A DNA stretch of 9,685 nucleotides. It comes from a virus (Duplodnaviria > Heunggongvirae > Uroviricota > Caudoviricetes). This document shows, piece by piece, positions 1-9,685 of this stretch. Within the stretch, counting starts at the first letter, position 1. The number at the start of each line of letters is the position of its first letter. The notes beneath the pieces were generated by a model. The model saw only the letters and a list, made by a program, of their open reading frames with translations. It ran no database searches and was not told the DNA's origin. The stretch is taken from positions 1 to 9,685 of the IMG/VR virus record IMGVR_UViG_2737471850_000009. One strand, given 5' to 3'. Position numbers and translations under genes: made by a program.

Positions 1-510
1 CGCGTCACGAATGGTTTTAATGCCGTAAATGCTCTTCATGGCGGTTACGCCCGCCAGTTCGTTGGCCGGGAATGTGCAGACACTGATTTCCCGCAGATAA
101 GTAATGTTTTTGAAAATGAGGCCGGACGTGCCGACGGTGTAATCGTCAGGGCCGACTGAAAAACCCACCGACATGCCTTCAACCGTGCCATGCTGCATGG
201 CGGCCTTCAGATCCTCGGCCAGGCTCAATCTGGGTGTGAGCTGCCCTCGGACATAAAGCCCCTTCTCGTCTTCGTGCATGGCATCCCATTTGCCAACCGG
301 GATGGCTCGCGTCTGGTGGTTGAAGAACATCGCCACCTTGCGGCTCTGGTTAGCCACCACACCAGCGAAAGCCCCGGGCAAAATAATGTCGCCGTCGGCG
401 TCGGTGTTATTGAAAACCGAGGCATACCCTTCAAACGTTCCCTTGCTGCCGTCGCCGGTGAACTTGATTTCGGTCTGGTCGAACGCCAGCGTCTTGTGAA
501 TATCAGGCAT
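1..510 (-). CDS. HK97-family prohead maturation protease (peptidase S78), N-terminal part; gene continues past the window start
   Basis: My own minus-strand translation from ATG at 510-508 stays open to position 1 (MPDIHKTLAFDQTEIKFTGDGSKGTFEGYASVFNNTDADGDIILPGAFAG...ISVCTFPANELAGVTAMKS...). The GDIILPGAF and FPAN motifs are typical of HK97-type prohead proteases. It sits directly downstream of portal. It is absent from the ORF track because there is no in-window stop. The start could instead be the in-frame ATG at 522. Confidence 0.8.
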   Translation of the reverse strand, partial: MPDIHKTLAFDQTEIKFTGDGSKGTFEGYASVFNNTDADGDIILPGAFAGVVANQSRKVAMFFNHQTRAIPVGKWDAMHEDEKGLYVRGQLTPRLSLAEDLKAAMQHGTVEGMSVGFSVGPDDYTVGTSGLIFKNITYLREISVCTFPANELAGVTAMKSIYGIKTIRDA

Positions 511-527
511 CGTGGCCCCCATAAAAA

Positions 528-1799
528 TTAAGCCCCGTCATTGCGGGGCTCTTTGTTTGTTCCGAGGTCGGTAATGGGAACGTTCTGCGACTGGCGCGTC
601 GCCACATCACCGCCAGGCAAAGGCGGAAGATTATCCAGTCGCCGCACTTCGTTAACGGTACGGATCCCTGTATTAACCATGGTTTGCATGAAGGTAGCGC
701 GGCTCGCTGAGTCACCACGAAGCAGGCCATCAAGGTTATGCTCGGCGTGCAGCCTTCCCTGATCGGACTCTTTTACCAGCCAGCGCTCTATGCTGTACTC
801 CCAGCGATCGAGATAGGGCTTCAGGGTGTACTGGAGAAAGCCGAGGTTCTGCTGTTCAATGCCGCTGCCCCATGAAGTTGTTTTTTCAACATCACCAACC
901 AGGTGCGGCGGAACACCGTAAAAGCGCGCCAGCTCTGCCACCTGAAACTTACGGGCCTCAAGCATCTGTGCGTCCTGCGGCGAGATGCCTATCGGCTGCG
1001 TGGTGAACCCGCTCTCAATGATCCAGAGGCGTTTTCTCACCGGGCCGCCGGCAATCTCCTTAAAGTTTTCCTCCAGCTGTCCGCGCTGCTCTTTGGTCAG
1101 CACCTTGCCGTCAGTCATCAGGATTTGCGGTGATTTGGCGCCGTTGGCGAAAAACTCCCGCTGGTTATCTTCCATAGCAATAGCCACGCCTGCAGATTTG
1201 GCGCTGAACGCCAGCGGCGATAACCCGACCAGCCCGTTAAAGCCGAAGCCTTTCAGGTGGAATATTTCTTTCGGCTTAAAGTCCACATACTCGCTGTCGC
1301 GCCGGTACCGGTAGATGACATTTTTTCCATCGAGCCGGACATCCATATTCGCGCTCATCAGCGGAAGCAGGCTGATGACATCGCCGACGCTGTTTCGCTC
1401 CACATGCGCGTAGGCATTGCCGTAGGCGCAAAGCTGCATTGTCATTGCCTCGCGAAACTCCAGCGCGGTCATGAAGTTGTTGGGCCGGAAGCGAAGAAGC
1501 TTCGCCAGCGGGTTCTGGTTGTCGACTTTCTTTCGCTGATCATCGATGGTTTCAAAAACATCCAGCGGTAACGAGGCTGTTACGGTGGAGATGAGCCGGA
1601 TGCAGGCCCATACGGTGCTGATCGACATGTTGCGCTCATCGCTCACCACCGATTCCCCGACGGTGCCGTGAGCTGATGTGCCCGCCATCTGCGAGCCATT
1701 ATCCGGTGAAACCAGGCGGCCACCGGTCAGAATAGAGGCCATGCGCGCCCAGAATGGCGATCGCGTTCGCAGGTCAATGCTGTAATCGGTATCTGCCAT
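528..1799 (-). CDS. Phage portal protein, HK97 family
   Basis: 423-aa ORF with the length and sequence character of HK97-family portals. Its ATG lies 2 nt after the terL stop (tight coupling). Canonical position between terL and prohead protease. Confidence 0.9.
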   Translation of the reverse strand: MADTDYSIDLRTRSPFWARMASILTGGRLVSPDNGSQMAGTSAHGTVGESVVSDERNMSISTVWACIRLISTVTASLPLDVFETIDDQRKKVDNQNPLAKLLRFRPNNFMTALEFREAMTMQLCAYGNAYAHVERNSVGDVISLLPLMSANMDVRLDGKNVIYRYRRDSEYVDFKPKEIFHLKGFGFNGLVGLSPLAFSAKSAGVAIAMEDNQREFFANGAKSPQILMTDGKVLTKEQRGQLEENFKEIAGGPVRKRLWIIESGFTTQPIGISPQDAQMLEARKFQVAELARFYGVPPHLVGDVEKTTSWGSGIEQQNLGFLQYTLKPYLDRWEYSIERWLVKESDQGRLHAEHNLDGLLRGDSASRATFMQTMVNTGIRTVNEVRRLDNLPPLPGGDVATRQSQNVPITDLGTNKEPRNDGA

Positions 1800-1801
1800 T
1801 T

Positions 1802-3334
1802 TTAAACGCTCAAAAAGTTGTAAATGAAATCGTTAACGTCGCCCGGATCCTCCACCTCATCACTGGTCTGTGCGCCGATAGACATCGCCAGCGCCACCAT
1901 GCCGTCGATACGGCCGCTCGATTTGCCTTTCACAAACTTGCGGTTACCGGCGGGGTCGGTGATTACCGTGGCGTTTTTGGCGCACATCTCGAGGATCGGA
2001 TGGTTGCCGTGCTTCAGTTGCGCGCCGAGCAGTTTAGCTTCCAGCTCCCTGAGCGCAGGCGACATGGAGACAAAACCCTGGCCGAATTCCACGAACCGCT
2101 CGAGCTCCGCCTCAGTGAAACCGGCGTCGATGAGATGCGGGCGAAGGAAGCGCATGTTGTAGCGGTCGAACGCCAGCGCCCGGACGTTACAGATATCAAA
2201 AACGCGCCGCAGCTCCCGTGCAATAAAGGCGTACTCAATGGCTTTGCCCGGCGTCGTGTTCAGCCAGCCCTGCTTCGCCCATATGTCATAAGGCACGCGA
2301 TCGTTACGCGCCTTGTCCGCCAGCCCCTCTTCAGGTAGCCAGAACTTACAGTGCACATCGCCCTGCGTTGTGTTGAGCACCAGCGCGGTCAGGTCCGACA
2401 CGCTGGAAAGGTCCAGCCCGCCCCAGACGGTAGCGCCCGCCAGTTCGCCAGGCTCTTCTTTGTTCATGTGCCAGACGGTCTGGCTGACGAACGGGCTTTT
2501 CGCCTCAACCCTGCGGTTCAGTACAAGGTTCTCAAATTCAGCCTGGCGCGACGGGAGGCGCTTGGCGCTGGCGGCCATATCCAGCACTTCTTTCTGGTTC
2601 ATGAACACATCGAAGGCCGGGTTAGCCAGCCTGATGGCTTCGACAGAGAAAGGATCGATATCTTCCGGCGCGGTCTGCAGCCGTACCACCGTTCGCGGAT
2701 CGGCACCGGTCAGGCCATCATCAATCAGCAGGCTGAGCAGGTCGCTCGCATCGGGTGCCTGGGTGCTGATGATTACCGAGATAGGGTTGTCCTGAGCAGC
2801 GGTCGCGGTTTCCAGAGCTTCATAAAGCGGGTCACGCGGCCCGCGCACCTGGCCCAGCTCATCATGGGCGACAAATCGCGGCGAGAAACCGTAGGCCGTT
2901 GTGGCCTCAGCGCTCAACGCGCGATAGTAAGAGCCCAGTTCAGGGCAGTGAATCTCTTTGGCTGAATCTTTTATGGCAACGTATTGCATCAGTGTCGGAT
3001 TCATACGACACATTTTCGAAGCAAGGTTAAACAGAATTGCTGCCTGATCGCGTGATCGGGCTGCGGAATACAATTGTGAGTTAGGCGCTGATTCGGGACC
3101 AACCAGATAAAGCAGCATGATTATCGCTGTCTCTACCGTCTTGGCGTTCTTTCGCCCCCTGCTGATAATCGCGCGGCGAGTACCATGCTCATTATCAAAT
3201 ATTGCTCTGAAGTCATCCTTCATGAAAGGAGCCATCTTCAGAGGCTGGCCTACGTACTTCCCTTCAGGGATCAGGATGTGTTTCTCACACCAGGCTATAT
3301 TGCGCTCAGCCCTTGTAAGCTTTTTTTTCGCCAT
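1802..3334 (-). CDS. terL: Terminase large subunit (ATPase/nuclease)
   Basis: 510-aa ORF with an N-terminal P-loop-like segment (ISRGRKNAKT) and a DE acidic box (FVAHDELG), followed by a nuclease-like C-terminal half. Lies directly downstream of the small subunit gene and upstream of portal. Confidence 0.9.
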   Translation of the reverse strand: MAKKKLTRAERNIAWCEKHILIPEGKYVGQPLKMAPFMKDDFRAIFDNEHGTRRAIISRGRKNAKTVETAIIMLLYLVGPESAPNSQLYSAARSRDQAAILFNLASKMCRMNPTLMQYVAIKDSAKEIHCPELGSYYRALSAEATTAYGFSPRFVAHDELGQVRGPRDPLYEALETATAAQDNPISVIISTQAPDASDLLSLLIDDGLTGADPRTVVRLQTAPEDIDPFSVEAIRLANPAFDVFMNQKEVLDMAASAKRLPSRQAEFENLVLNRRVEAKSPFVSQTVWHMNKEEPGELAGATVWGGLDLSSVSDLTALVLNTTQGDVHCKFWLPEEGLADKARNDRVPYDIWAKQGWLNTTPGKAIEYAFIARELRRVFDICNVRALAFDRYNMRFLRPHLIDAGFTEAELERFVEFGQGFVSMSPALRELEAKLLGAQLKHGNHPILEMCAKNATVITDPAGNRKFVKGKSSGRIDGMVALAMSIGAQTSDEVEDPGDVNDFIYNFLSV

Positions 3335-3347
3335 TCGCTAATCAGCC

Positions 3348-3782
3348 TTAATCAATTTCCCAGGGCTTTTTCTCCCGAGCCAGATTGCTGTTGGCCCGGC
3401 CAACAGTTTTGGGATCGGCAGTAGCCTGGCGGGTAATCCGCAGGCGGGTCGCAAGAGAAGATGCCGATCGCACCTCGCGCTCGCGCATCGTGAGCAGCCT
3501 GTCGTAGCGCTTCAGCCCGTCTTCGCGGGACAACCACTCGAGCTCAAACTCTTCAATCTGGGTGGTGAGCAGCCGGGCCTGCACCACATGCCGACAGTAC
3601 ATCTCCAGCATGTCCCGGTGTGTTTCGGTGAATGAGCTGGCCGGGTTGTCATTAACCAGCCGGACCCAGACGTTAATCTCCGGATCGCTCAGGTGAATGG
3701 ACGGCTGCAACCTGCTTTCAGCCAGTGCCGGCAGCGAGACAGCAGACGTCGCAGCCAGAGACTTTCTGCCTCGCTGTGCCAT
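3348..3782 (-). CDS. terS: Terminase small subunit (P27-like)
   Basis: Start chosen at the internal ATG (MAQRGRKSL...) at 3782, preceded by AAGGA about 9 nt upstream. The 44 codons upstream in the track ORF run through a poly-C/AT-rich noncoding-looking tract. About 144 aa, basic N-terminus, immediately upstream of terL. Confidence 0.65.
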   Translation of the reverse strand: MAQRGRKSLAATSAVSLPALAESRLQPSIHLSDPEINVWVRLVNDNPASSFTETHRDMLEMYCRHVVQARLLTTQIEEFELEWLSREDGLKRYDRLLTMREREVRSASSLATRLRITRQATADPKTVGRANSNLAREKKPWEID

Positions 3783-3914
3783 CGCGTTTTTCCTTTTTTT
3801 CTGGACGTTTTTAAAAATAAAACTGGGAGCGCGGTCTTTAAGAATTTGGTACCAGAGTTTTACCCCTCCCCCTCCCTTACCAACATAAATATGAGAATTG
3901 ATATCATTTCTCAA

Positions 3915-4124
3915 TTACGTGTAAGCTTGAGTGAGGTATGCCAGAGGGCACCAGACGATCACCAACGCCGATTGGCAATGTGAGGGTAATGGTAGGGTAA
4001 TGGTAGGCAGCATCTCACCGACCTCATGATTGAAGGAGACTGCAGTGGCATGTTTAAAGCTCACGCTATCAATGCTCAACTCAATCAACTTCCCATCACG
4101 GTATTCAATCTTCATGTCTTGCAT
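3915..4124 (-). CDS. Hypothetical small protein (doubtful); may be non-coding cos region
   Basis: ATG at 4124 is preceded by AGGAG with a 6-nt spacer, directly after the HNH stop. The reading frame runs through the 11-bp tandem repeat (translated as PTITLPLP) and ends only at 3915, so the C-terminal half looks non-coding. Confidence 0.25.
   Translation of the reverse strand: MQDMKIEYRDGKLIELSIDSVSFKHATAVSFNHEVGEMLPTITLPLPSHCQSALVIVWCPLAYLTQAYT
3984..4005. repeat. Tandem direct repeat, 2 copies of the 11-bp unit GGGTAATGGTA (followed by GG)
   Basis: Read directly: GGGTAATGGTAGGGTAATGGTAGG. Candidate terminase small-subunit binding repeats (cosB-like), by position. Confidence 0.85.
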
Positions 4125-4136
4125 CAACTACTCCTG

Positions 4137-4427
4137 TTACCAGATAACACGGCCTTCATTATCGAACTCGGTGACCGTTCCGCCCTTCTCCATCCTCTGC
4201 TTTACCGAGTCGTGGCAACGTTTGCAAAGTGACTGAAGATTATCCGGATCATGAAAGAGCCTATCGTCTCCTTTGTGCGGGATGACATGGTCAACGATCG
4301 TTGCCGCTATCACCTGATTGCGCCGGAGGTGGAACTCACAAAGAGGTTGCTTCTGAAGCTGGTGATAGCGGAGTCGGTACCAACGCTTGGAATTGTAGAG
4401 GCTATGCCAAGGTGAATTGGATGCCAT
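4137..4427 (-). CDS. HNH endonuclease (terminase-associated, phage type)
   Basis: 96-aa ORF with a Cys pair and His/Asn signature (CEFH...N...H...CKRCH) typical of small phage HNH nucleases. GGGAG SD about 8 nt upstream of the ATG. Positioned just upstream of cos and terS as in HK97-like phages. Confidence 0.85.
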   Translation of the reverse strand: MASNSPWHSLYNSKRWYRLRYHQLQKQPLCEFHLRRNQVIAATIVDHVIPHKGDDRLFHDPDNLQSLCKRCHDSVKQRMEKGGTVTEFDNEGRVIW

Positions 4428-4504
4428 GGTTAATCTCCCTCTGCATTGCTAAATCGCCAATTCCGGCTAACGGCGTGCCCAGGCTCACAGCTGAAAGACT
4501 TTCT

Positions 4505-4534
4505 TTGAAGTGCGCGTGAGATGCGCTTTATACT
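4505..4534 (+). promoter_or_regulatory. Putative sigma70-type promoter for the YkgJ-like gene
   Basis: TTGAAG (4505-4510), 18-nt spacer, TATACT (4529-4534), about 95 nt upstream of the ATG at 4630. Sequence-only prediction. Confidence 0.3.
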
Positions 4535-4629
4535 CCAGCAATAGCCGCCAGCAATGCCAGTAAGTATCAAATTACAAAATTATCTTTGTTCATTTTGTTG
4601 AGTGACACCTCAAAAAGGAGGCATGGGAA

Positions 4630-5163
4630 ATGAGTCTGGAAAAATTGCTAATCAAAGATAGAAAATGTGGTTCATGTTCTGTTTGTTGTAAATCCCTGAG
4701 AATCGAAGAGCCAGAGCTTAAAAAATTTGCTGGAGTGCCATGTCAGCATCTTAAAGCACAGGGCGGATGTTCGATTTATAATGATCGCCCATCTCTATGT
4801 CGTACGTGGTACTGCGGATGGAGAGTTTTAGGTATCGGTCCGGAAATGAGGCCTGATCGTTGTGGTGTTCTTATTCGCTTCGATGGCAAAGCTCTGTGCT
4901 TTCAGCCAGTAAATGATGGTCAAGTTACTACATTGCTTGATCCAGAGCCTTTACGTGTTTTAAGCAGTTCAATTGCAAATGGGATGACCGTTCAGATTTC
5001 GATTCCGACAAAAGAAGGCTTTTGCTCTTCAAATGTCGACGTTACAGCAGCTATGACCGAGGTAGTTAAAACCAGAGAGTTTGATAAGATTCGTGCAACT
5101 ATGATTGGATTAATTCAATTCGCTGCGAATTCGAAGACAGACCCGATTGCTCCTTTAAATTAG
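4630..5163 (+). CDS. YkgJ-family cysteine-cluster protein (CxxCxxCC putative Zn/Fe-chelating domain, UPF0153-like)
   Basis: 177-aa ORF with AAGGAGG SD 9 nt upstream. Carries CGSCSVCC (CxxCxxCC) and later GGCSIYNDRPSLCRTWYC, matching the two hallmark segments of the YkgJ/CxxCxxCC family. Opposite strand to all flanking phage genes and visibly AT-richer (sampled stretches roughly 32-43% GC versus the clearly GC-richer late genes). Confidence 0.75.
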   Translation: MSLEKLLIKDRKCGSCSVCCKSLRIEEPELKKFAGVPCQHLKAQGGCSIYNDRPSLCRTWYCGWRVLGIGPEMRPDRCGVLIRFDGKALCFQPVNDGQVTTLLDPEPLRVLSSSIANGMTVQISIPTKEGFCSSNVDVTAAMTEVVKTREFDKIRATMIGLIQFAANSKTDPIAPLN

Positions 5164-5171
5164 CATCCGAT

Positions 5172-5189
5172 GCCGGGGTTGCACCCGGC
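5172..5189 (+). terminator. Stem-loop immediately after the stop codon of the YkgJ-like gene (weak or atypical terminator)
   Basis: GCCGGG-GTTGCA-CCCGGC, a 6-bp GC stem with a 6-nt loop, 8 nt after TAG. No U tract on either strand, so not a canonical intrinsic terminator. Confidence 0.25.
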
Positions 5190-5557
5190 TTAACAAACGA
5201 GAAACATACGAATCGGTTGCAAATCTCAAGCAGCTCTTGTCTTTTAACATTAGACGATCGTTTCATTAGCATTTCATCTGATGTACTGAATAAGTTTTTC
5301 ATAAAACATTCCCATTCTAATTATCTAGGCTGCATTTAAATGCCTCACCACTTCCCGGAGTGGCCACGCTCATGCCCTTGAGTTGCTGTCGCTTCATCGC
5401 CGCTTATAACCGGTGCGCGTCTGGCGTTCGCGCTGCTCTACCGGAGCTTATTTTGATATAAGAACCTTGACCCGTCGCTATACAGGCTCGCTCAATGGCG
5501 ACTCAGGGCAGCATCATTACTGCTGCATTGCCTTTCGGCTGCGGTCTAACCGCTTTG

Positions 5558-5788
5558 CTACTTGATTTCGAGTTTCTCCTTCTGACAATTTGCCTGCCAC
5601 GCTTTGTTATGCGTCAGGATGTCGCGCTTGGTCTGCTTATCCAACACATCCCAGTCATTATCTGTTGCATAGATAGGATGAACCCAGTCGCACGCCGTAT
5701 CGACTACCTCAACCCTTACGGGTCCAGTTTGTGCGCAGCTCGCGATCAACGTCGTCGCCAGGCATATGATTAACTTTCTGCTGTACAT
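5558..5788 (-). CDS. o-spanin (Rz1-like outer-membrane lipoprotein)
   Basis: Internal ATG at 5788 (MYSRKLIICLATTLIASCAQTGP...) preceded by GAGAGG with a 6-nt spacer. Signal peptide with lipobox-like IASC. The gene begins inside the i-spanin gene in another frame and extends past it (overlapped architecture as in P2 lysB/lysC). The longer track ORF from 5959 is treated as an artefactual extension. Confidence 0.55.
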   Translation of the reverse strand: MYSRKLIICLATTLIASCAQTGPVRVEVVDTACDWVHPIYATDNDWDVLDKQTKRDILTHNKAWQANCQKEKLEIK

Positions 5789-5981
5789 TACTGGCCTCTC
5801 TGGTGACTTCTGCCTGACGTTCTGCCACTGCAACCTTCGCCGCTGCGTTTTCTTCAGTGCGTTGTTGATCGGCTTTCGCTTCTGCTTTGCTGGTTCCGCG
5901 AATATGGCCAAGACCAAACCCACCAGCAGCGGCAACACAGATAGCACCAATGACACCAATGATGATTTCTACAATGCTCAT
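5709..5981 (-). CDS. i-spanin (Rz-like; N-terminal TM helix plus charged coiled-coil periplasmic region)
   Basis: The ATG overlaps the endolysin stop (ATGA). N-terminal hydrophobic helix IVEIIIGVIGAICVAAAGGFGLG followed by an Ala/Glu/Lys/Gln-rich segment. Sits immediately after the endolysin. At 90 aa it is short for an i-spanin. Confidence 0.5.
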   Translation of the reverse strand: MSIVEIIIGVIGAICVAAAGGFGLGHIRGTSKAEAKADQQRTEENAAAKVAVAERQAEVTREASNVQQKVNHMPGDDVDRELRTNWTRKG

Positions 5982-6589
5982 GCAATCACCGCTTTCGCTT
6001 TGCCGTAACGCACGCGTCTGTCGTTAATGCCGTTCTGACCGCCATTGATAATCTGAGTGATGCGCACCAGGTCATCGGTGTACTTCAGGCAACCTTTGGA
6101 GGCGTAGAACCATGCAGCAGAACGCGCAGCATTGATGTCTTTCTCCAGCAGTTCAGGGTTAGTAACCAGGTCAAGCTTCAGACCATTGCCGCAATCACGG
6201 TAATTGGTGAGACCGGTAATCTGAATTAATCCGCGCCCACGGTATTTCCAGCCATCACCAGCAGCTTTATTACCCAGGCGGTTGCTGTATACCAGGTTCG
6301 CGATAGCTTCCTGACTTGCTGGCTTACCGTTGGCACGTCCAAGCATTGAGGCCTGGTAGTTCGTTACCCGGCGTCCAAACGTCGTCAGTAATGCGGCAGG
6401 CGTGTAGTTGAAGTTCTCCACCAGCGCAGAGAATCCCGCCGATTCATGTCCTACCTGAGCAATGAACATCGCCTTATCTTTTGGTTCAGTGATGCCGAAC
6501 TCTTTCATTGCATCCGTAATCGGCTGAAACCAGCGCGCAGCTAACCCGGCGCTAATTACAGCCGCCTGTTGAAATTGTGATTGGTTCAT
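5978..6589 (-). CDS. Endolysin, glycoside hydrolase family 19 (chitinase-like phage lysozyme)
   Basis: 203-aa ORF with GH19-type endolysin sequence character (e.g. FIAQVGHESAGF, KYRGRGLIQITG, INGG segments). Its ATG overlaps the stop of the upstream membrane-protein gene. Confidence 0.85.
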   Translation of the reverse strand: MNQSQFQQAAVISAGLAARWFQPITDAMKEFGITEPKDKAMFIAQVGHESAGFSALVENFNYTPAALLTTFGRRVTNYQASMLGRANGKPASQEAIANLVYSNRLGNKAAGDGWKYRGRGLIQITGLTNYRDCGNGLKLDLVTNPELLEKDINAARSAAWFYASKGCLKYTDDLVRITQIINGGQNGINDRRVRYGKAKAVIA

Positions 6590-6864
6590 TAATGCCTCAG
6601 CGTATCAACGAGACGCGCTACGTTCCCACGAGCCCATAAGACGGCAGCGCAAATAAGAAGGTTTACGATGACCACCATCCAGTGTGACTCCTGGTAGAGG
6701 CCAAACAGATATCGGAATGGAACGCTGGCATAAACCAGCACAACGAAGTACGCCAGCAATGATATAGCGGGGCGATGTCTTGCCCCTTCACGCTGGTAGA
6801 ACATCAGGACGATGACTGCACAAATACCTGCATTCACCATCGCTGACGGATCACTTGTTACCAT
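6589..6864 (-). CDS. Small membrane protein, putative holin/antiholin
   Basis: Start placed at ATG 6864 with GGAGG upstream (the track uses GTG at 6882). Two to three hydrophobic helices. Its stop overlaps the endolysin start. Confidence 0.5.
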   Translation of the reverse strand: MVTSDPSAMVNAGICAVIVLMFYQREGARHRPAISLLAYFVVLVYASVPFRYLFGLYQESHWMVVIVNLLICAAVLWARGNVARLVDTLRH

Positions 6865-7246
6865 TGCTGGCCCCTCCTCCACGGAATCGCGAAAGAATAC
6901 TGAACAGGCTTCCCAAATCCTGACTGTTGAAAAATGTGAGCACTTTGATTGTCATCGCCGCCACTACAACAGCACCAAGCGCGTCTAATGGTCTGTCACT
7001 GTACCCGGTAGCTTGTGACAACTTTGAACCAACCAGGCCAGCAGCAAGAACGCCAACAATGAATGACGTCATGAAGTAAGCAATCAGTCGTACTCGTGTG
7101 ATATTTGCCGCTGTCGCTACATAAAATACTGCACCAGCGAATGCGCCAAATACCACGCCATAATCAATACCGGTTGCGAGACCAAATACACTGGCTCCCA
7201 TCAGGCCACCAGCCGCGACCGTAGTGCCAGAAACAGGATCGGACAT
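6851..7246 (-). CDS. Phage holin-family membrane protein
   Basis: 131-aa ORF with Gly/Ala-rich transmembrane helices and a hydrophilic C-terminus. GAGGGGG SD upstream. It is the first gene after the late terminator, as expected for a holin. Confidence 0.6.
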   Translation of the reverse strand: MSDPVSGTTVAAGGLMGASVFGLATGIDYGVVFGAFAGAVFYVATAANITRVRLIAYFMTSFIVGVLAAGLVGSKLSQATGYSDRPLDALGAVVVAAMTIKVLTFFNSQDLGSLFSILSRFRGGGASNGNK

Positions 7247-7330
7247 TAAGCCCCCTCTTATTGCTGTGAGTCCTCTCAGAACGAGGGGAAAATAAAAAGG
7301 GCCACCAATTGGCAGCCCTCAAAACGCAAA

Positions 7331-7360
7331 AACCCGCACGATGGCGGGTTTCTTTTTGTT
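7331..7360. terminator. Intrinsic terminator (tR'-like), apparently bidirectional
   Basis: AACCCGC-ACGATG-GCGGGTT, a 7-bp stem, followed by TCTTTTTGTT on the plus strand and preceded by AAAACGCAAAA (a T-run on the minus strand). Lies between Q and the holin gene. Confidence 0.6.
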
Positions 7361-7399
7361 CTGTTGCTCAGTTCGCTTTAACGTCCCGAGCCTACCACA

Positions 7400-7428
7400 A
7401 TTTAAGCACTTTCTTGCTCACTCTGCAA
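7400..7428 (-). promoter_or_regulatory. Candidate late promoter (PR'-like) overlapping the 3' end of Q
   Basis: Minus strand reads TTGCAG, 17 nt, TTAAAT. The -10 overlaps the Q stop codon. The terminator lies about 40-60 nt downstream, giving the short leader typical of Q-dependent late promoters. Confidence 0.35.
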
Positions 7429-7980
7429 CTTAAATCTGTCGCTATTTGTGCCGAATGCGTCACAAACTGGAGCGTACAGGATCGATTCTGCTAGACTTAG
7501 CCAAGTGTCAATGCGACGACGGCAGGTGATCAGCGGCCAATCAGGGTGTTTAGCCTGCAGTTCATTGGCCATCTGCAACTTACTCTTACGTAGGCGATGG
7601 CGGTCGACAATCACGCTATAGAGCGATCGGTAGTCATCATTCATCAGTACAGAAGCAATGACTCCGTCAACTAACAACCCTTCTTCGTCTGAACAGAACG
7701 CCAGACCGCTTTTATTTTTGCTGTTGAGGATTTCACGCAGGTACGCTTCAAGTTCAGGCTTGGTGATACCTGATTTCTTCATGCGGCGCAGAGCATCATT
7801 GATAGCTGTCTTGGTGATTTTCCCGGATGCCAGAAGCTGGTTAAACATGTTCCCACCACTACCGCCGCCGATATAAGACCAGCGGCCCCACATGCGCAAC
7901 TTACCCTGTATCCAGATGCTTTCCAGAGTACGAAGACGAACCATTTCACCAGATTTACCAACTTCAGAAGGATTAATCAT
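7402..7980 (-). CDS. Late-gene antiterminator Q (phage 82 / QuuD-like family)
   Basis: 192-aa ORF with GGAGAA SD upstream. Segments RMWGRW and CSDEEGLLVDG...YSVIVD resemble the ERWGAW and Cys/Asp-rich blocks I recall from 82-type Q proteins. Position immediately upstream of promoter, terminator and lysis genes supports the call. Confidence 0.65.
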   Translation of the reverse strand: MINPSEVGKSGEMVRLRTLESIWIQGKLRMWGRWSYIGGGSGGNMFNQLLASGKITKTAINDALRRMKKSGITKPELEAYLREILNSKNKSGLAFCSDEEGLLVDGVIASVLMNDDYRSLYSVIVDRHRLRKSKLQMANELQAKHPDWPLITCRRRIDTWLSLAESILYAPVCDAFGTNSDRFKLQSEQESA

Positions 7981-7994
7981 TTAGCGTTCTCCAC

Positions 7995-8318
7995 TTACGC
8001 CAGTACGCCGATTGCCAGCGCACGATCTATAACCCGAAACATCAGGACCATCTGGTCACCGTATTTCGCTTCAAATGCCACAGGATCAGCATGCAACTCG
8101 TCGTGATGCTCTCTGCACAGAGGAATCACAAACAGGTCGTGTGCCTTTGTACCCATTCCACCCTGCCCGTGGCCAATCAGGTGGTGGGGGTCGTCAGCTT
8201 GCTTGTTACAGCAGACGCACAGCTGGGCCTTAACCCATCTCGTGTATTTCTCATTCACCCAGCGACGACGCTTGGGTTTAAGCATGAAGGATTCCGGTGT
8301 CTCCGGGTCTACCTTCAT
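7995..8318 (-). CDS. HNH-motif protein of nin-region type (DUF968 / Ref-like putative nuclease)
   Basis: CVCCNKQADDPHHLIGHGQGG...CREHHDELH shows a Cys pair plus paired His motifs. Sits immediately upstream of Q, as nin-region genes do in lambdoid phages. Start uncertain: GTG at 8324 (track), ATG at 8318, or ATG at 8285. Confidence 0.5.
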   Translation of the reverse strand: MKVDPETPESFMLKPKRRRWVNEKYTRWVKAQLCVCCNKQADDPHHLIGHGQGGMGTKAHDLFVIPLCREHHDELHADPVAFEAKYGDQMVLMFRVIDRALAIGVLA

Positions 8319-8790
8319 CGCCACTATCTTTTTCGCTTTCTCCTGTACCTTCGCTTATGCGGTTCAGGTTGCTGTTTTAGAAATTCGCGAAGCCCGTTGT
8401 AAGTACAAAGAACTGCAATCACAAAACGCAGACATGGCAGTACAGCTCGCTAACGCCGAGAGCAAGTGCAGGGAGCTGGCGTTGGAGAATGCATACATCC
8501 GCAACCGGTACAAAGAACTGGACTTGTTAATCGGGAAAAACATCCTGGTCATGCAGGCAGCGATTATCGAATGGCAGGCAACTGGCGACGCTAAGAACGG
8601 GCTGTCATGGATTTATAACACCCTGTTTGGGCCTAGTGAATTGCCTGACGAATCTGAGAAAGATGCTCAGGCCTACTTTGACCGCAAATATGCACCGATT
8701 AACGAAGAGTTGATGGCACTTCACAAGTGGTTTTGGGAACAAAGTGAAGTTGAACGTGCCGCCGCTGGCATTGGCGTGAAGGGGGAGTGA
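8284..8790 (+). CDS. Hypothetical protein: N-terminal hydrophobic helix plus coiled-coil-like region
   Basis: First ATG of the track ORF (which begins at a TTG at 8203). MKDSGVSGSTFIATIFFAFSCTFAYAVQVAVL is followed by heptad-like KYKELQSQNADMAVQLANAESKCRELALENAYIRNRYKELD. The antisense frames look like junk. No family recognised. Its 5' end overlaps the 5' end of the divergent DUF968-like gene. Confidence 0.5.
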   Translation: MKDSGVSGSTFIATIFFAFSCTFAYAVQVAVLEIREARCKYKELQSQNADMAVQLANAESKCRELALENAYIRNRYKELDLLIGKNILVMQAAIIEWQATGDAKNGLSWIYNTLFGPSELPDESEKDAQAYFDRKYAPINEELMALHKWFWEQSEVERAAAGIGVKGE

Positions 8791-8791
8791 G

Positions 8792-8965
8792 ATGGCAGAA
8801 CGCTGGAAGATTCTCCTGCTAATAGCATTTATTTTTTTGACGGTCATTCCAGTAAGCATGGTGGCCGTGAAGGTTTATGTGTCTCCATGGCTGCTAATTG
8901 CAGGTCATGCAGGCGCAATGCTTTTCGGTTTTATATGCGCTGAGCTCGCGCGGAAGGATTACTAA
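8792..8965 (+). CDS. Small hydrophobic protein (57 aa, two predicted TM helices)
   Basis: Not in the ORF track (under 60 aa). ATG 8792 preceded by GGGGGAG. Translation MAERWKILLLIAFIFLTVIPVSMVAVKVYVSPWLLIAGHAGAMLFGFICAELARKDY. The stop lies 3 nt before the recombinase ATG, in the same frame. Confidence 0.4.
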   Translation: MAERWKILLLIAFIFLTVIPVSMVAVKVYVSPWLLIAGHAGAMLFGFICAELARKDY

Positions 8966-8968
8966 CCC

Positions 8969-9685
8969 ATGACAACTAACAACCACCCGGCGAACGGTCC
9001 TGTATCACTCGATCGGCTGCACCAGATACGCGAAATACTCAGCAAAGCAGCAGCACAAAGCGACGGCGGTAATCTCGGCTACGCAATGGCTGATGCTGTG
9101 AAGGTGATTGATGGGGCAATTGCTGAGTTTGGTAACCCATGCGTAGGCGTCGATAAATACCCTAAACCTCAGCGCGACCGATACATTACGGATGAAGAGT
9201 ATTTAGCAATTTATGACTGTGCTACTGATCCGGTAAAAGCCGCAATGGAAATTGCTTATCTCTGTGCAGCGAGGGTTTCCGATGTTCTGAAAATGGACTG
9301 GAATCAGATAATGGATAAAGGAATTTTCATTCAACAGGGTAAAACTGGAGTTAAGCAGATTAAAGCGTGGACAGACCGCTTGCACTCCGCTGTCAATCTT
9401 TGCAGGAAATCAGGGGAAGATGGCGCTGTCATCAAAACCATGTACGGAGAGCGATATTCCTATAAAGGTTTCAATGAAGCCTGGAGAAAGGCTAGGAATG
9501 CGGCTGCTGAAAAAATTGGCAGACCGTTAGACTGCACGTTCCATGATCTGAAGGCGAAAGGCATTTCTGACTATGAAGGAAGTGGCCGTGATAAGCAAAA
9601 ATTCAGTGGTCACAAAACTGAATCACAGGTGTTGGTATACGACAGGAAAGTAAAAATTAGCCCAACTTTAAACAGAAAAATGTGA
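8969..9685 (+). CDS. Tyrosine recombinase, lambda-Int-like catalytic domain only (arm-binding domain absent)
   Basis: 238 aa. Aligns by eye to the C-terminal ~250 residues of lambda Int (RYITDEEYLAIY...ARVSDVLKMDW...QQGKTGVK...TFHDLK...GHKTESQVLVYDR versus lambda LTADEYLKIY...QRVGDLCEMKW...SKTGVK...TFHELR...GHKSDTMASQYRD). The catalytic Arg-I, Lys, His and Tyr are present, but Arg-II is Lys. Ends with a stop at the window edge. Confidence 0.8.
   Translation: MTTNNHPANGPVSLDRLHQIREILSKAAAQSDGGNLGYAMADAVKVIDGAIAEFGNPCVGVDKYPKPQRDRYITDEEYLAIYDCATDPVKAAMEIAYLCAARVSDVLKMDWNQIMDKGIFIQQGKTGVKQIKAWTDRLHSAVNLCRKSGEDGAVIKTMYGERYSYKGFNEAWRKARNAAAEKIGRPLDCTFHDLKAKGISDYEGSGRDKQKFSGHKTESQVLVYDRKVKISPTLNRKM

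Follow-up and report, generated by a model that had tools for sequence, protein, structure and literature searches.

Positions 4428-5347 of the DNA analysed here are a horizontally mobile accessory-gene cassette (moron) that lies antisense in the late operon of a lambdoid/HK97-like prophage of the Enterobacteriaceae, at the junction between its lysis and packaging genes. The DNA is a stretch of 9,685 nucleotides (nt), positions 1 to 9,685 of the IMG/VR virus record IMGVR_UViG_2737471850_000009, and is called the window below. The cassette carries a plus strand gene (4630-5163) for a 177-amino acid protein of two domains, the first of which holds a CxxCxxCC cysteine cluster. When the observed and the predicted parts of the picture are taken jointly, and the chemistry of the protein is left aside, we consider it probable that the cassette is an autonomous moron whose product is a metal-binding protein of the YkgJ superfamily. 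An initial annotation, made by reading the sequence, had described an AT-rich, opposite-strand moron with a YkgJ-type gene at this place; overall its observation was confirmed, and its interpretation supported, by the comparisons described here. Other loci used in these comparisons are given L numbers where they have to be told apart.

A mobile cassette at the lysis-to-packaging junction

The ends of the cassette are defined by a related prophage in E. coli F467 (L165), which is homologous to the window at 2950-4427 and 5348-6627 with 79-82% identity. In place of 4428-5347 this prophage has about 1 kilobase of unrelated DNA with a different plus strand gene, which encodes 141 amino acids and has no Pfam match. 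Since the homology of the flanks stops at 4427 and 5348, these positions mark the cassette boundaries, and the slot takes alternative antisense cargo. The genes that neighbour the cysteine-cluster gene are all on the minus strand; to its left lie those for an HNH endonuclease, a 70-amino acid open reading frame (ORF), the terminase subunits TerS and TerL and the portal protein, and to its right those for the spanins, a GH19 endolysin, two holins, a DUF1133/Q-like protein and a DUF968 protein. The antisense placement between the spanin and HNH/terminase genes that had been claimed for the gene is thus correct. The claim that the region is lower in GC than its flanks also holds when GC content is computed: segment 4428-5347 has a GC fraction of 0.422 against 0.51-0.55 in the flanks, which is nearly the lowest value for any 920-nt stretch of the window (the minimum is 0.4207, for the stretch that starts at 4421; the mean is 0.519 with a standard deviation of 0.042). 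The cysteine-cluster ORF itself has a GC fraction of 0.419 and a third-position GC fraction of 0.320, the latter being 0.43-0.70 in all other genes of the window.

The cassette is found in backbones that have little else in common with the window. In each of about 30 enterobacterial IMG/VR contigs the gene and the spanin genes lie on opposite strands and converge, and the terminase and portal proteins encoded on the other side of the gene are only 24-35% identical to those of the window, or are absent. The identical 177-amino acid protein is present in 404 indexed blocks of the assembly collection, and its context was inspected in six places; these included HK97-like prophages, a lambda-type prophage with Nu1, gpA, gpW and portal_2 genes (L168), and decayed remnants, one of which has gtrABC-like genes beside it (L170; the other remnant is L171). 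An allele with 69% identity (P0004) gives the same pattern, including a remnant in which the gene lies beside a transposase (L176). The occurrence of the identical protein across hundreds of Enterobacter, Citrobacter and E. coli assemblies, and its retention in remnants, suggests that it benefits the lysogen. In the initial annotation this junction had been put forward as a classic moron site; the presence or absence of the gene at the same slot, its cassette in unrelated backbones and remnants, and a terminator whose stem covaries (below) all sustain that reading.

A known case of the same kind is bor of phage lambda, a lysogenic-conversion moron that lies between Rz/Rz1 and cos/nu1 and is transcribed against the late operon; its product is an outer-membrane lipoprotein, and its expression in the lysogen is known. 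On the lambda map bor occupies the same slot as the window gene, past the spanins and ahead of the packaging genes, and it is likewise antisense. Both are also small autonomous units with their own translation signal and terminator, and both are polymorphic for presence and absence. The two proteins are unrelated, however, as the window gene encodes a cysteine-cluster protein that is predicted to be cytoplasmic and whose expression in the lysogen is a prediction.

The place of the cassette among the genes of the junction varies, and these genes include those for a glucosyltransferase (phrog_854, of PHROG category 'moron'), a 485-amino acid GT2-like protein, and tail-tip-like and Tad2-like proteins. 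In L013-L016 (at 6810-7412) and in L028 a 200-amino acid protein with a Tad2-like C-terminal domain (PF11195, E=2.4e-21) is encoded directly beside the cysteine-cluster gene, which shows that conflict-related cargo gathers at the lysis/packaging junction.

Such a neighbour, which resembles an anti-Thoeris protein, raises the possibility that the cysteine-cluster protein is itself a defence protein (acting in superinfection exclusion or abortive infection) or an anti-defence protein, and antisense morons at this junction do often protect the lysogen. However, the 177-amino acid protein has no match among the 5,027 models of PADLOC-DB v2, no known defence or anti-defence family uses its fold, and its homologues also occur on chromosomes in non-phage contexts. 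Anti-defence genes, moreover, are normally early and sense-oriented rather than antisense in a late region. We regard this explanation as quite unlikely, and a defence-type benefit in general as hardly less so; the suggestion in the initial annotation that the gene might be anti-defence cargo gained no support, given the absence of a PADLOC match.

The cysteine-cluster protein is under strong purifying selection

The translation of 4630-5163 contains everything that had been noted in it, namely 177 amino acids with 11 cysteines, the CxxCxxCC signature and a CSIYxxRPxxCR block. The signature reads C13-G-S-C16-S-V-C19-C20 (codons at 4666-4689, plus strand) and the second block C47-S-I-Y-N-D-R-P-S-L-C57-R; the full set of cysteines is at residues 13, 16, 19, 20, 38, 47, 57, 62, 78, 90 and 132. 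Eight of them (C13, C16, C19, C20, C38, C47, C57 and C62), together with P75, are invariant in an alignment of 64 sequences, and the remaining three are not conserved there. The gene is preceded by a Shine-Dalgarno (SD) sequence, AAGGAGG at 4615-4621, which lies 8 nt 5' of the ATG at 4630 and is strong, as had been noted.

A word-indexed search returned 25 homologues with identities down to 32%, and a hidden Markov model (HMM) built from their alignment matched 6,798 cluster representatives (clustered at 50% identity) at E<=1e-3, 3,653 of them at E<=1e-10 and 140 at E<=1e-30. These relatives are mostly of about 175-200 amino acids and are matched over their full length. The orthologues in the other loci are, every one, exactly 177 codons long, and pairwise ratios of nonsynonymous to synonymous substitution (dN/dS) are 0.03-0.13, with synonymous sites saturated in comparisons with the window allele. 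The gene is real and is under strong purifying selection.

An AlphaFold2 (AF2) model of the protein has a mean predicted local distance difference test score of 81, and above 90 in the C-terminal domain. An N-terminal domain with the eight cysteines spans residues 10-65 or so and is followed by an alpha/beta domain at about 75-177, which has conserved RPD and PT..G motifs of its own and is specific to the subfamily of about 180 amino acids. By inspection there is neither a signal peptide nor a lipobox and the sequence looks soluble, and we infer that the protein is probably a soluble one of the cytoplasm. Sequence searches of the PDB with two family profiles gave nothing at E<=10, so no solved structure was found to be alike, and a fold comparison against BFVD matched only uncharacterised phage proteins.

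These results also bear on the idea that the gene is no more than a chance frame in AT-rich junk DNA, or a pseudogene undergoing decay there. Low GC does favour long spurious ORFs on some strands, and the Pfam score (below) lies under its cutoff. A frame of that kind would not have dN/dS ratios as low as these, eight invariant cysteines and thousands of relatives, nor would it be expected to yield a confident AF2 fold and an identical protein in hundreds of assemblies, and we count the idea as refuted.

Relationship to the YkgJ superfamily

The sole Pfam match of the protein is to PF03692 (CxxCxxCC), the family to which the initial annotation had pointed. The match exists (E=1.9e-4), but at 22.5 bits it falls 0.5 bits short of the Pfam gathering cutoff of 23. 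The same profile is matched weakly (E<=0.01) by 19 of 22 close relatives and by 23 of 64 broader ones, the best at E=7e-5 and none strongly. The N-terminal half of the protein matches phrog_9155, a family of unknown function, at E=1.4e-16, and NCBIfam gave the window protein no match of any kind at E<=0.01. In NCBI the identical protein is named 'MULTISPECIES: YkgJ family cysteine cluster protein [Enterobacteriaceae]', its sources being mainly Enterobacter hormaechei/cloacae and Citrobacter with some E. coli, and a 70%-identical allele that is present in 5 of 5,426 E. coli genomes bears the same name from the Prokaryotic Genome Annotation Pipeline.

Like the window protein, E. coli YkgJ is small and soluble and has eight conserved cysteines, with CxxCxxCC followed by C...C-[ST]-I-Y-x-x-R-[PS]-x-x-C-R, of which the second block can be read in YkgJ as CCTIYKNRSSTCR. 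It differs in being a single-domain protein of 109 amino acids encoded by a core chromosomal gene, whereas the window protein has 177 amino acids, an extra C-terminal domain and a prophage-borne gene. Profile alignment of the two with hhalign covered only 15 columns, at a probability of 21%. Orthology to E. coli YkgJ was rejected, given the extra domain and the lack of a full-length alignment, and on sequence grounds we file the protein as a putative divergent, two-domain branch of the YkgJ/CxxCxxCC superfamily.

That the function of this family is unknown, as had been stated, is true in part, since two distant members are characterised methyltransferases. One is FliB, the flagellin lysine N-methyltransferase of Salmonella, whose N-terminal cysteine cluster holds a [4Fe-4S] centre needed for methyl transfer and has eight conserved cysteines with CX4CX3CC spacing (PMC8598068). 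The other is DpdM, a phage protein for which E. coli YkgJ has been described as a homologue and which methylates preQ1 in DNA (PMC10516641). FliB and the window protein share an N-terminal cysteine cluster of the same general type with eight conserved cysteines; however, FliB is far longer, and the spacing in the window protein is CX2CX2CC. Membership of the FliB family was rejected on these differences of spacing and length and on the NCBIfam result. DpdM is likewise phage-encoded with a cysteine cluster of the same general type, and membership of the DpdM/DUF3109 family was rejected since neither the window protein nor any of 64 relatives matches DUF3109; no genes of the dpdA/preQ (7-deazaguanine) pathway were found among the scanned ORFs of the window or in the gene tables of related loci.

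Transcription signals of the cassette

A stem-loop of the type expected for an intrinsic terminator, GCCGGGG-TTGCA-CCCGGC, is located at 5172-5189 on the plus strand, 9 nt past the stop codon of the cysteine-cluster gene. Its position is conserved across loci with compensatory changes in the stem (GTCGGAG/CTCCGAC, GTCGGGT/ACCCGGC and GTCGGGG/CCCCGAC), and in most loci the hairpin is followed by TCTTTAAAA or TTTTTAAAA and a T-rich tract; the window itself has only a weak T tract. As there is no T run past the hairpin on the strand of the late operon, it should not stop late transcription. Gene order and strand imply that late transcription must cross the cassette antisense.

The initial annotation had also credited the gene with a promoter-like sequence. 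One can be read at 4505-4534 on the plus strand (TTGAAG-N18-TATACT, with 9 of 12 matches to the sigma-70 consensus), but sites as good as this are not enriched, there being 3 in the window against 2.2+/-1.8 in shuffled versions of it. It recurs only in L168, the upstream region of which is of the window type; L004-type loci share just a 59-nt block that includes the -35-like hexamer, and the remaining aligned loci have different upstream sequences. Because the upstream regions are only partly conserved, this candidate promoter stays a prediction.

The 59-nt block (4468-4526, minus strand) has copies in unrelated phages that are 85-93% identical. These copies always stand directly in front of a gene that matches PF09327 (Phage_Tail_Tip), be it HK639_13 or one of the cluster-18 genes, and are located at 2501-2559 of L161 (HK639), at 7977-8035 of L003 and in L022, L023, L029 and L031. 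In the window the block, -35-like hexamer included, precedes the HNH gene rather than a tail-tip-like gene, and by this comparison it is a relic that marks a recombination or deletion junction. Two other interpretations of the block, a sigma-54-like -24/-12 site on the minus strand and a plus strand promoter, were found unsupported, its role elsewhere as the leader of tail-tip-like genes being the explanation in both cases.

Evidence against the moron reading, and a possible lytic role

Several observations run counter to the view that the cassette is an autonomous moron with a metal-binding product of the YkgJ superfamily. On the side of the protein they are the NCBIfam null result, the Pfam score half a bit under the cutoff and the 15-column alignment with YkgJ, and on the side of autonomy the promoter, which as a chance-level match is unproven. 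Among the cultured phages in INPHARED there is no full-length close homologue; the only matches there are in cyanomyophages and a Rhizobium phage, and they cover the cysteine domain only. Lastly, in some distant phages a homologue is sense-oriented within the head/packaging module, which speaks less for lysogenic conversion than for a phage-intrinsic role.

Such a role would be a lytic job in packaging or head morphogenesis, performed by a metal-dependent accessory protein much as HNH proteins serve HK97-type terminases, and it is the main rival of the moron reading. Three loci have a two-domain homologue sense-oriented between the portal gene, which it overlaps, and the prohead protease gene (L042 2417-3028, L046 2468-3097 and L047 2963-3592), and in two more a homologue lies on the same strand about 1 kilobase upstream of the TerL gene (L050 1750-2481 and L059 493-1320). 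All of these contigs are GC-rich. The window gene, for its part, adjoins the HNH-TerS-TerL set. Nevertheless, in the roughly 30 enterobacterial loci the gene without exception opposes the late operon, with an SD sequence and a terminator of its own, it is kept in remnants that lack packaging genes (L170, L171 and L176), it is dispensable in the related backbone of F467, and homologues lie outside phage contexts on the chromosomes of Psychromonas, Moritella, Oleispira and alphaproteobacteria. For the window gene a packaging or morphogenesis function thus seems distinctly improbable to us, and an autonomous moron is the reading we prefer.

A convergent small ORF

The initial annotation overlooked a small ORF and a structured RNA, which fill the rest of 5164-5557 beyond the cysteine-cluster gene. 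The small ORF (5099-5302, minus strand, 67 amino acids) is convergent with that gene and overlaps both the terminator hairpin and the last 65 nt of the gene. Equivalents of 51-69 amino acids with the core SDxxLM-x9-10-L-x-K-x6-7-F are present at the same place in enterobacterial prophage loci and persist down to loci in which the main protein is only about 40% identical. A regular expression for this core matched 25 of 98 loci tested, all of them within L004-L032 (enterobacterial prophages), and gave about 3 matches in the other 2.16 million residues of six-frame translation; L001-L003, which carry the window allele, are one residue short of it.

This association suggests that the two genes might form a convergent module, in which the small ORF's product would be a partner or substrate of the cysteine-cluster protein or its antisense regulator. 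The core co-occurs with the main gene over that whole range of identity and is essentially absent elsewhere, F467 has lost the small ORF along with the main gene, the terminator and the main gene's 3' end both lie within the small ORF, and an in-frame 3-nt indel leaves it open. Against such a module, substitutions by codon position (0.32, 0.24 and 0.32) lack the third-position excess expected of a coding sequence under selection, and the start codon is not conserved in one locus, L017; nor does the small ORF occur beside the chromosomal and distant viral homologues of the main gene, and it has no match in Pfam or PHROG. We hold the module to be a doubtful proposition; the small ORF may encode a protein, may act as a regulatory block of RNA or DNA, or may do both.

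In five loci (L022, L023, L025, L027 and L032) the small ORF begins with MVETQ, as does the adjacent phrog_854 glucosyltransferase gene. This shared start suggests that the cassette was inserted just inside the start of the glucosyltransferase gene and thereby duplicated it.

Possible functions of the protein

Cysteine sets of the CxxCxxCC family bind zinc or iron, and PF03692 (also UPF0153) is annotated as a 'putative zinc- or iron-chelating domain'. By analogy we think it very likely that the eight conserved cysteines of the window protein bind metal. The CxxCxxCC cysteines may hold a [4Fe-4S] cluster as in FliB, or else zinc, and the second cysteine quartet may form a further metal site; from the same analogy a centre that includes iron-sulphur is slightly favoured, and a centre of zinc only is possible and would surprise us more. 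The C-terminal domain would then select the substrate or partner. On the most speculative level the protein might carry out an iron-sulphur-dependent group transfer, perhaps of a methyl group, on a host or phage macromolecule as FliB and DpdM do, an idea that we rate as improbable in this specific form.

As to when the protein is made, we rather expect expression in the prophage that is independent of late transcription. In the mechanism that we propose, the cysteine-cluster gene would be transcribed from its own promoter independently of the late operon, most likely in the lysogen, and during lytic growth Q-modified late transcription would run antisense through it.

The neighbourhoods of 80 bacterial loci with homologues yielded no partner that is conserved beyond the genus level. 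A weak exception is the pairing of genes for a short-chain dehydrogenase/reductase (SDR) and an enoyl-CoA hydratase beside homologues in Moritella (L097-L100), Psychromonas (L094) and Kordiimonadaceae/Emcibacteraceae (L104, L112 and L138); alphaproteobacterial homologues also lie beside an acyl-CoA dehydrogenase gene and a RidA-like gene. The recurrence of the SDR and enoyl-CoA hydratase genes is the only neighbourhood signal outside phages, and it spans two distant proteobacterial classes.

As a genetic element the moron is ordinary cargo at a known kind of site, and its product already carries a YkgJ-family label at NCBI. The interest of the protein lies in its being an unstudied and strongly conserved branch of a metal-cluster superfamily that is very large (about 6,800 clusters at 50% identity) and has hardly been characterised. 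Those motif relatives with known chemistry, FliB and DpdM, are unusual iron-sulphur-linked methyltransferases, and biochemistry on this small soluble protein could help to define the role of the whole superfamily.

A structured RNA element next to the cassette

Between the cassette and the lysis genes lies an RNA element of about 200-215 nt (5339-5555, minus strand), which has the sense of the late operon and starts 3 nt past the stop codon of the o-spanin gene. Because it is retained in F467, it belongs to the backbone and not to the cassette. No other part of the interval has close DNA matches in the collections of phages and E. coli, where the element is always left without annotation.

Evidence for the structure comes from an alignment of 73 sequences, made up of the window copy and 72 representatives with pairwise identities below 93%. 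In a model with six helices 97.6% of the alignment cells are paired, and 14 of the 27 pairs show double-sided changes, compared with 5.4+/-1.5 in shuffled alignments (none of 500 shuffles reached the observed number). There are 62 compensatory cells, whereas shuffles have 8.5 and slid controls never more than 19. Many of the pairs are G-U pairs that fit only the minus strand, which identifies that strand as the sense strand of the RNA. Two blocks, CCGGUUAUNAGCGGC and CUCAAGGGCAUG, are invariant, in part because they were used to select the copies; likewise, the 3' strand of a candidate long-range helix (ACCGC/GCGGC) was fixed by the search pattern. There is little doubt that the element is a genuine RNA structure under selection.

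The element is widespread. An exact degenerate pattern of its core matches at least 120 IMG/VR contigs, and by megablast 151 of 5,426 complete E. coli genomes matched the window, mostly through the RNA segment. About nine isolated phages carry it, namely 733R5, 716R3, two Stx2c phages, Hafnia phage yong1, mEp213, RothC/D and a Providencia phage; distant blastn searches found none in the classic model phages. Copies are also present in L159-L165 and L177-L294.

The copies are usually preceded by what looks like a very short translation unit, a mini-ORF of 1-4 codons with its SD sequence. An SD sequence, a start codon, 0-5 sense codons and a stop codon stand ahead of 60 of 104 unique copies; 40 of these mini-ORFs have exactly two sense codons and seven are simply ATG-stop, and the stop codon ends a few nt before the first helix of the RNA. 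The window copy has, in place of a mini-ORF, the last codons of the o-spanin ORF (..AAG TAG). The copies occur at a few kinds of location: at least 20 follow genes for Q-type antiterminators, at least 11 lie between cI or upstream genes and an N-like gene (whose product has an arginine-rich N-terminus), and 14 follow the spanin genes. A strong intrinsic terminator, like tR', lies directly upstream of the SD sequence in 29 of 106 copies.

The element resembles nutL/nutR, HK022 putL/putR, the lambda 6S/pR' leader and StxS in being located in the same kinds of places, between pL/cI and N, directly behind Q and tR' or within the late operon, and always in the sense orientation. It differs from the lambdoid leader and processivity RNAs in having an SD sequence and a mini-ORF ahead of it and in lacking an Rfam model, and its size sets it apart as well, as it has at least six helices plus invariant loops against two stem-loops in about 70 nt for put and 74 nt for StxS. 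Searches with Rfam 15 gave no match in the window RNA at E<=1 and none in five loci with divergent copies at E<=0.1, and a full-text literature search for the invariant strings found unrelated primers only. Identity with HK022 put (70 nt), with StxS (74 nt) or the small RNAs of the 6S region, and with HnrS (66 nt) was rejected, as was identity with lambda PreS/LPR1, which lies between ea10 and ral; a search likewise rejected a tRNA or tmRNA.

An action on transcription processivity, on RNA stability or on downstream translation is our leading idea, and it is conjecture. That the family represents a new, translation-gated cis element of lambdoid operon junctions (a processivity, insulator or stability switch) we put forward tentatively, as something less likely than not to be right in all its parts. 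In the window such an RNA would condition late transcription or translation just before the antisense run through the moron to the HNH and terminase genes. Of the two objects described here the RNA is the more surprising, being widespread, covarying and outside Rfam, and placed where lambdoid phages control transcription processivity.

Other features of the window

The left flank of the cassette is formed by the gene for the HNH endonuclease of the HNH-TerS-TerL packaging set (4137-4427, minus strand; PF01844, E=7e-9; phrog_2323, E=4.4e-32). On the right flank are the overlapping minus strand genes for the o-spanin (5558-5788), which has the lipobox LIASC, and the i-spanin (5709-5981); the pair matches phrog_1275 (E=1.9e-30) and phrog_1026 (E=3.3e-31).

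A weak isrJ-like Rfam match at 497-552 on the plus strand (26.9 bits against a gathering score of 37, E=0.12) involves mainly a GC hairpin at the end of the portal gene, and is probably just a terminator-like hairpin. The window also contains an integrase-family ORF (PF00589, E=1.6e-11) unusually near the Q region. IMG/VR contig L001 is 100% identical to window positions 1-6518 and then continues directly into the integrase-like ORF (window 8969-9685), without the holin genes, the Q-like gene and the DUF968 gene that occupy 6519-8968 of the window; either L001 is a deletion variant, or one of the two sequences has been rearranged.

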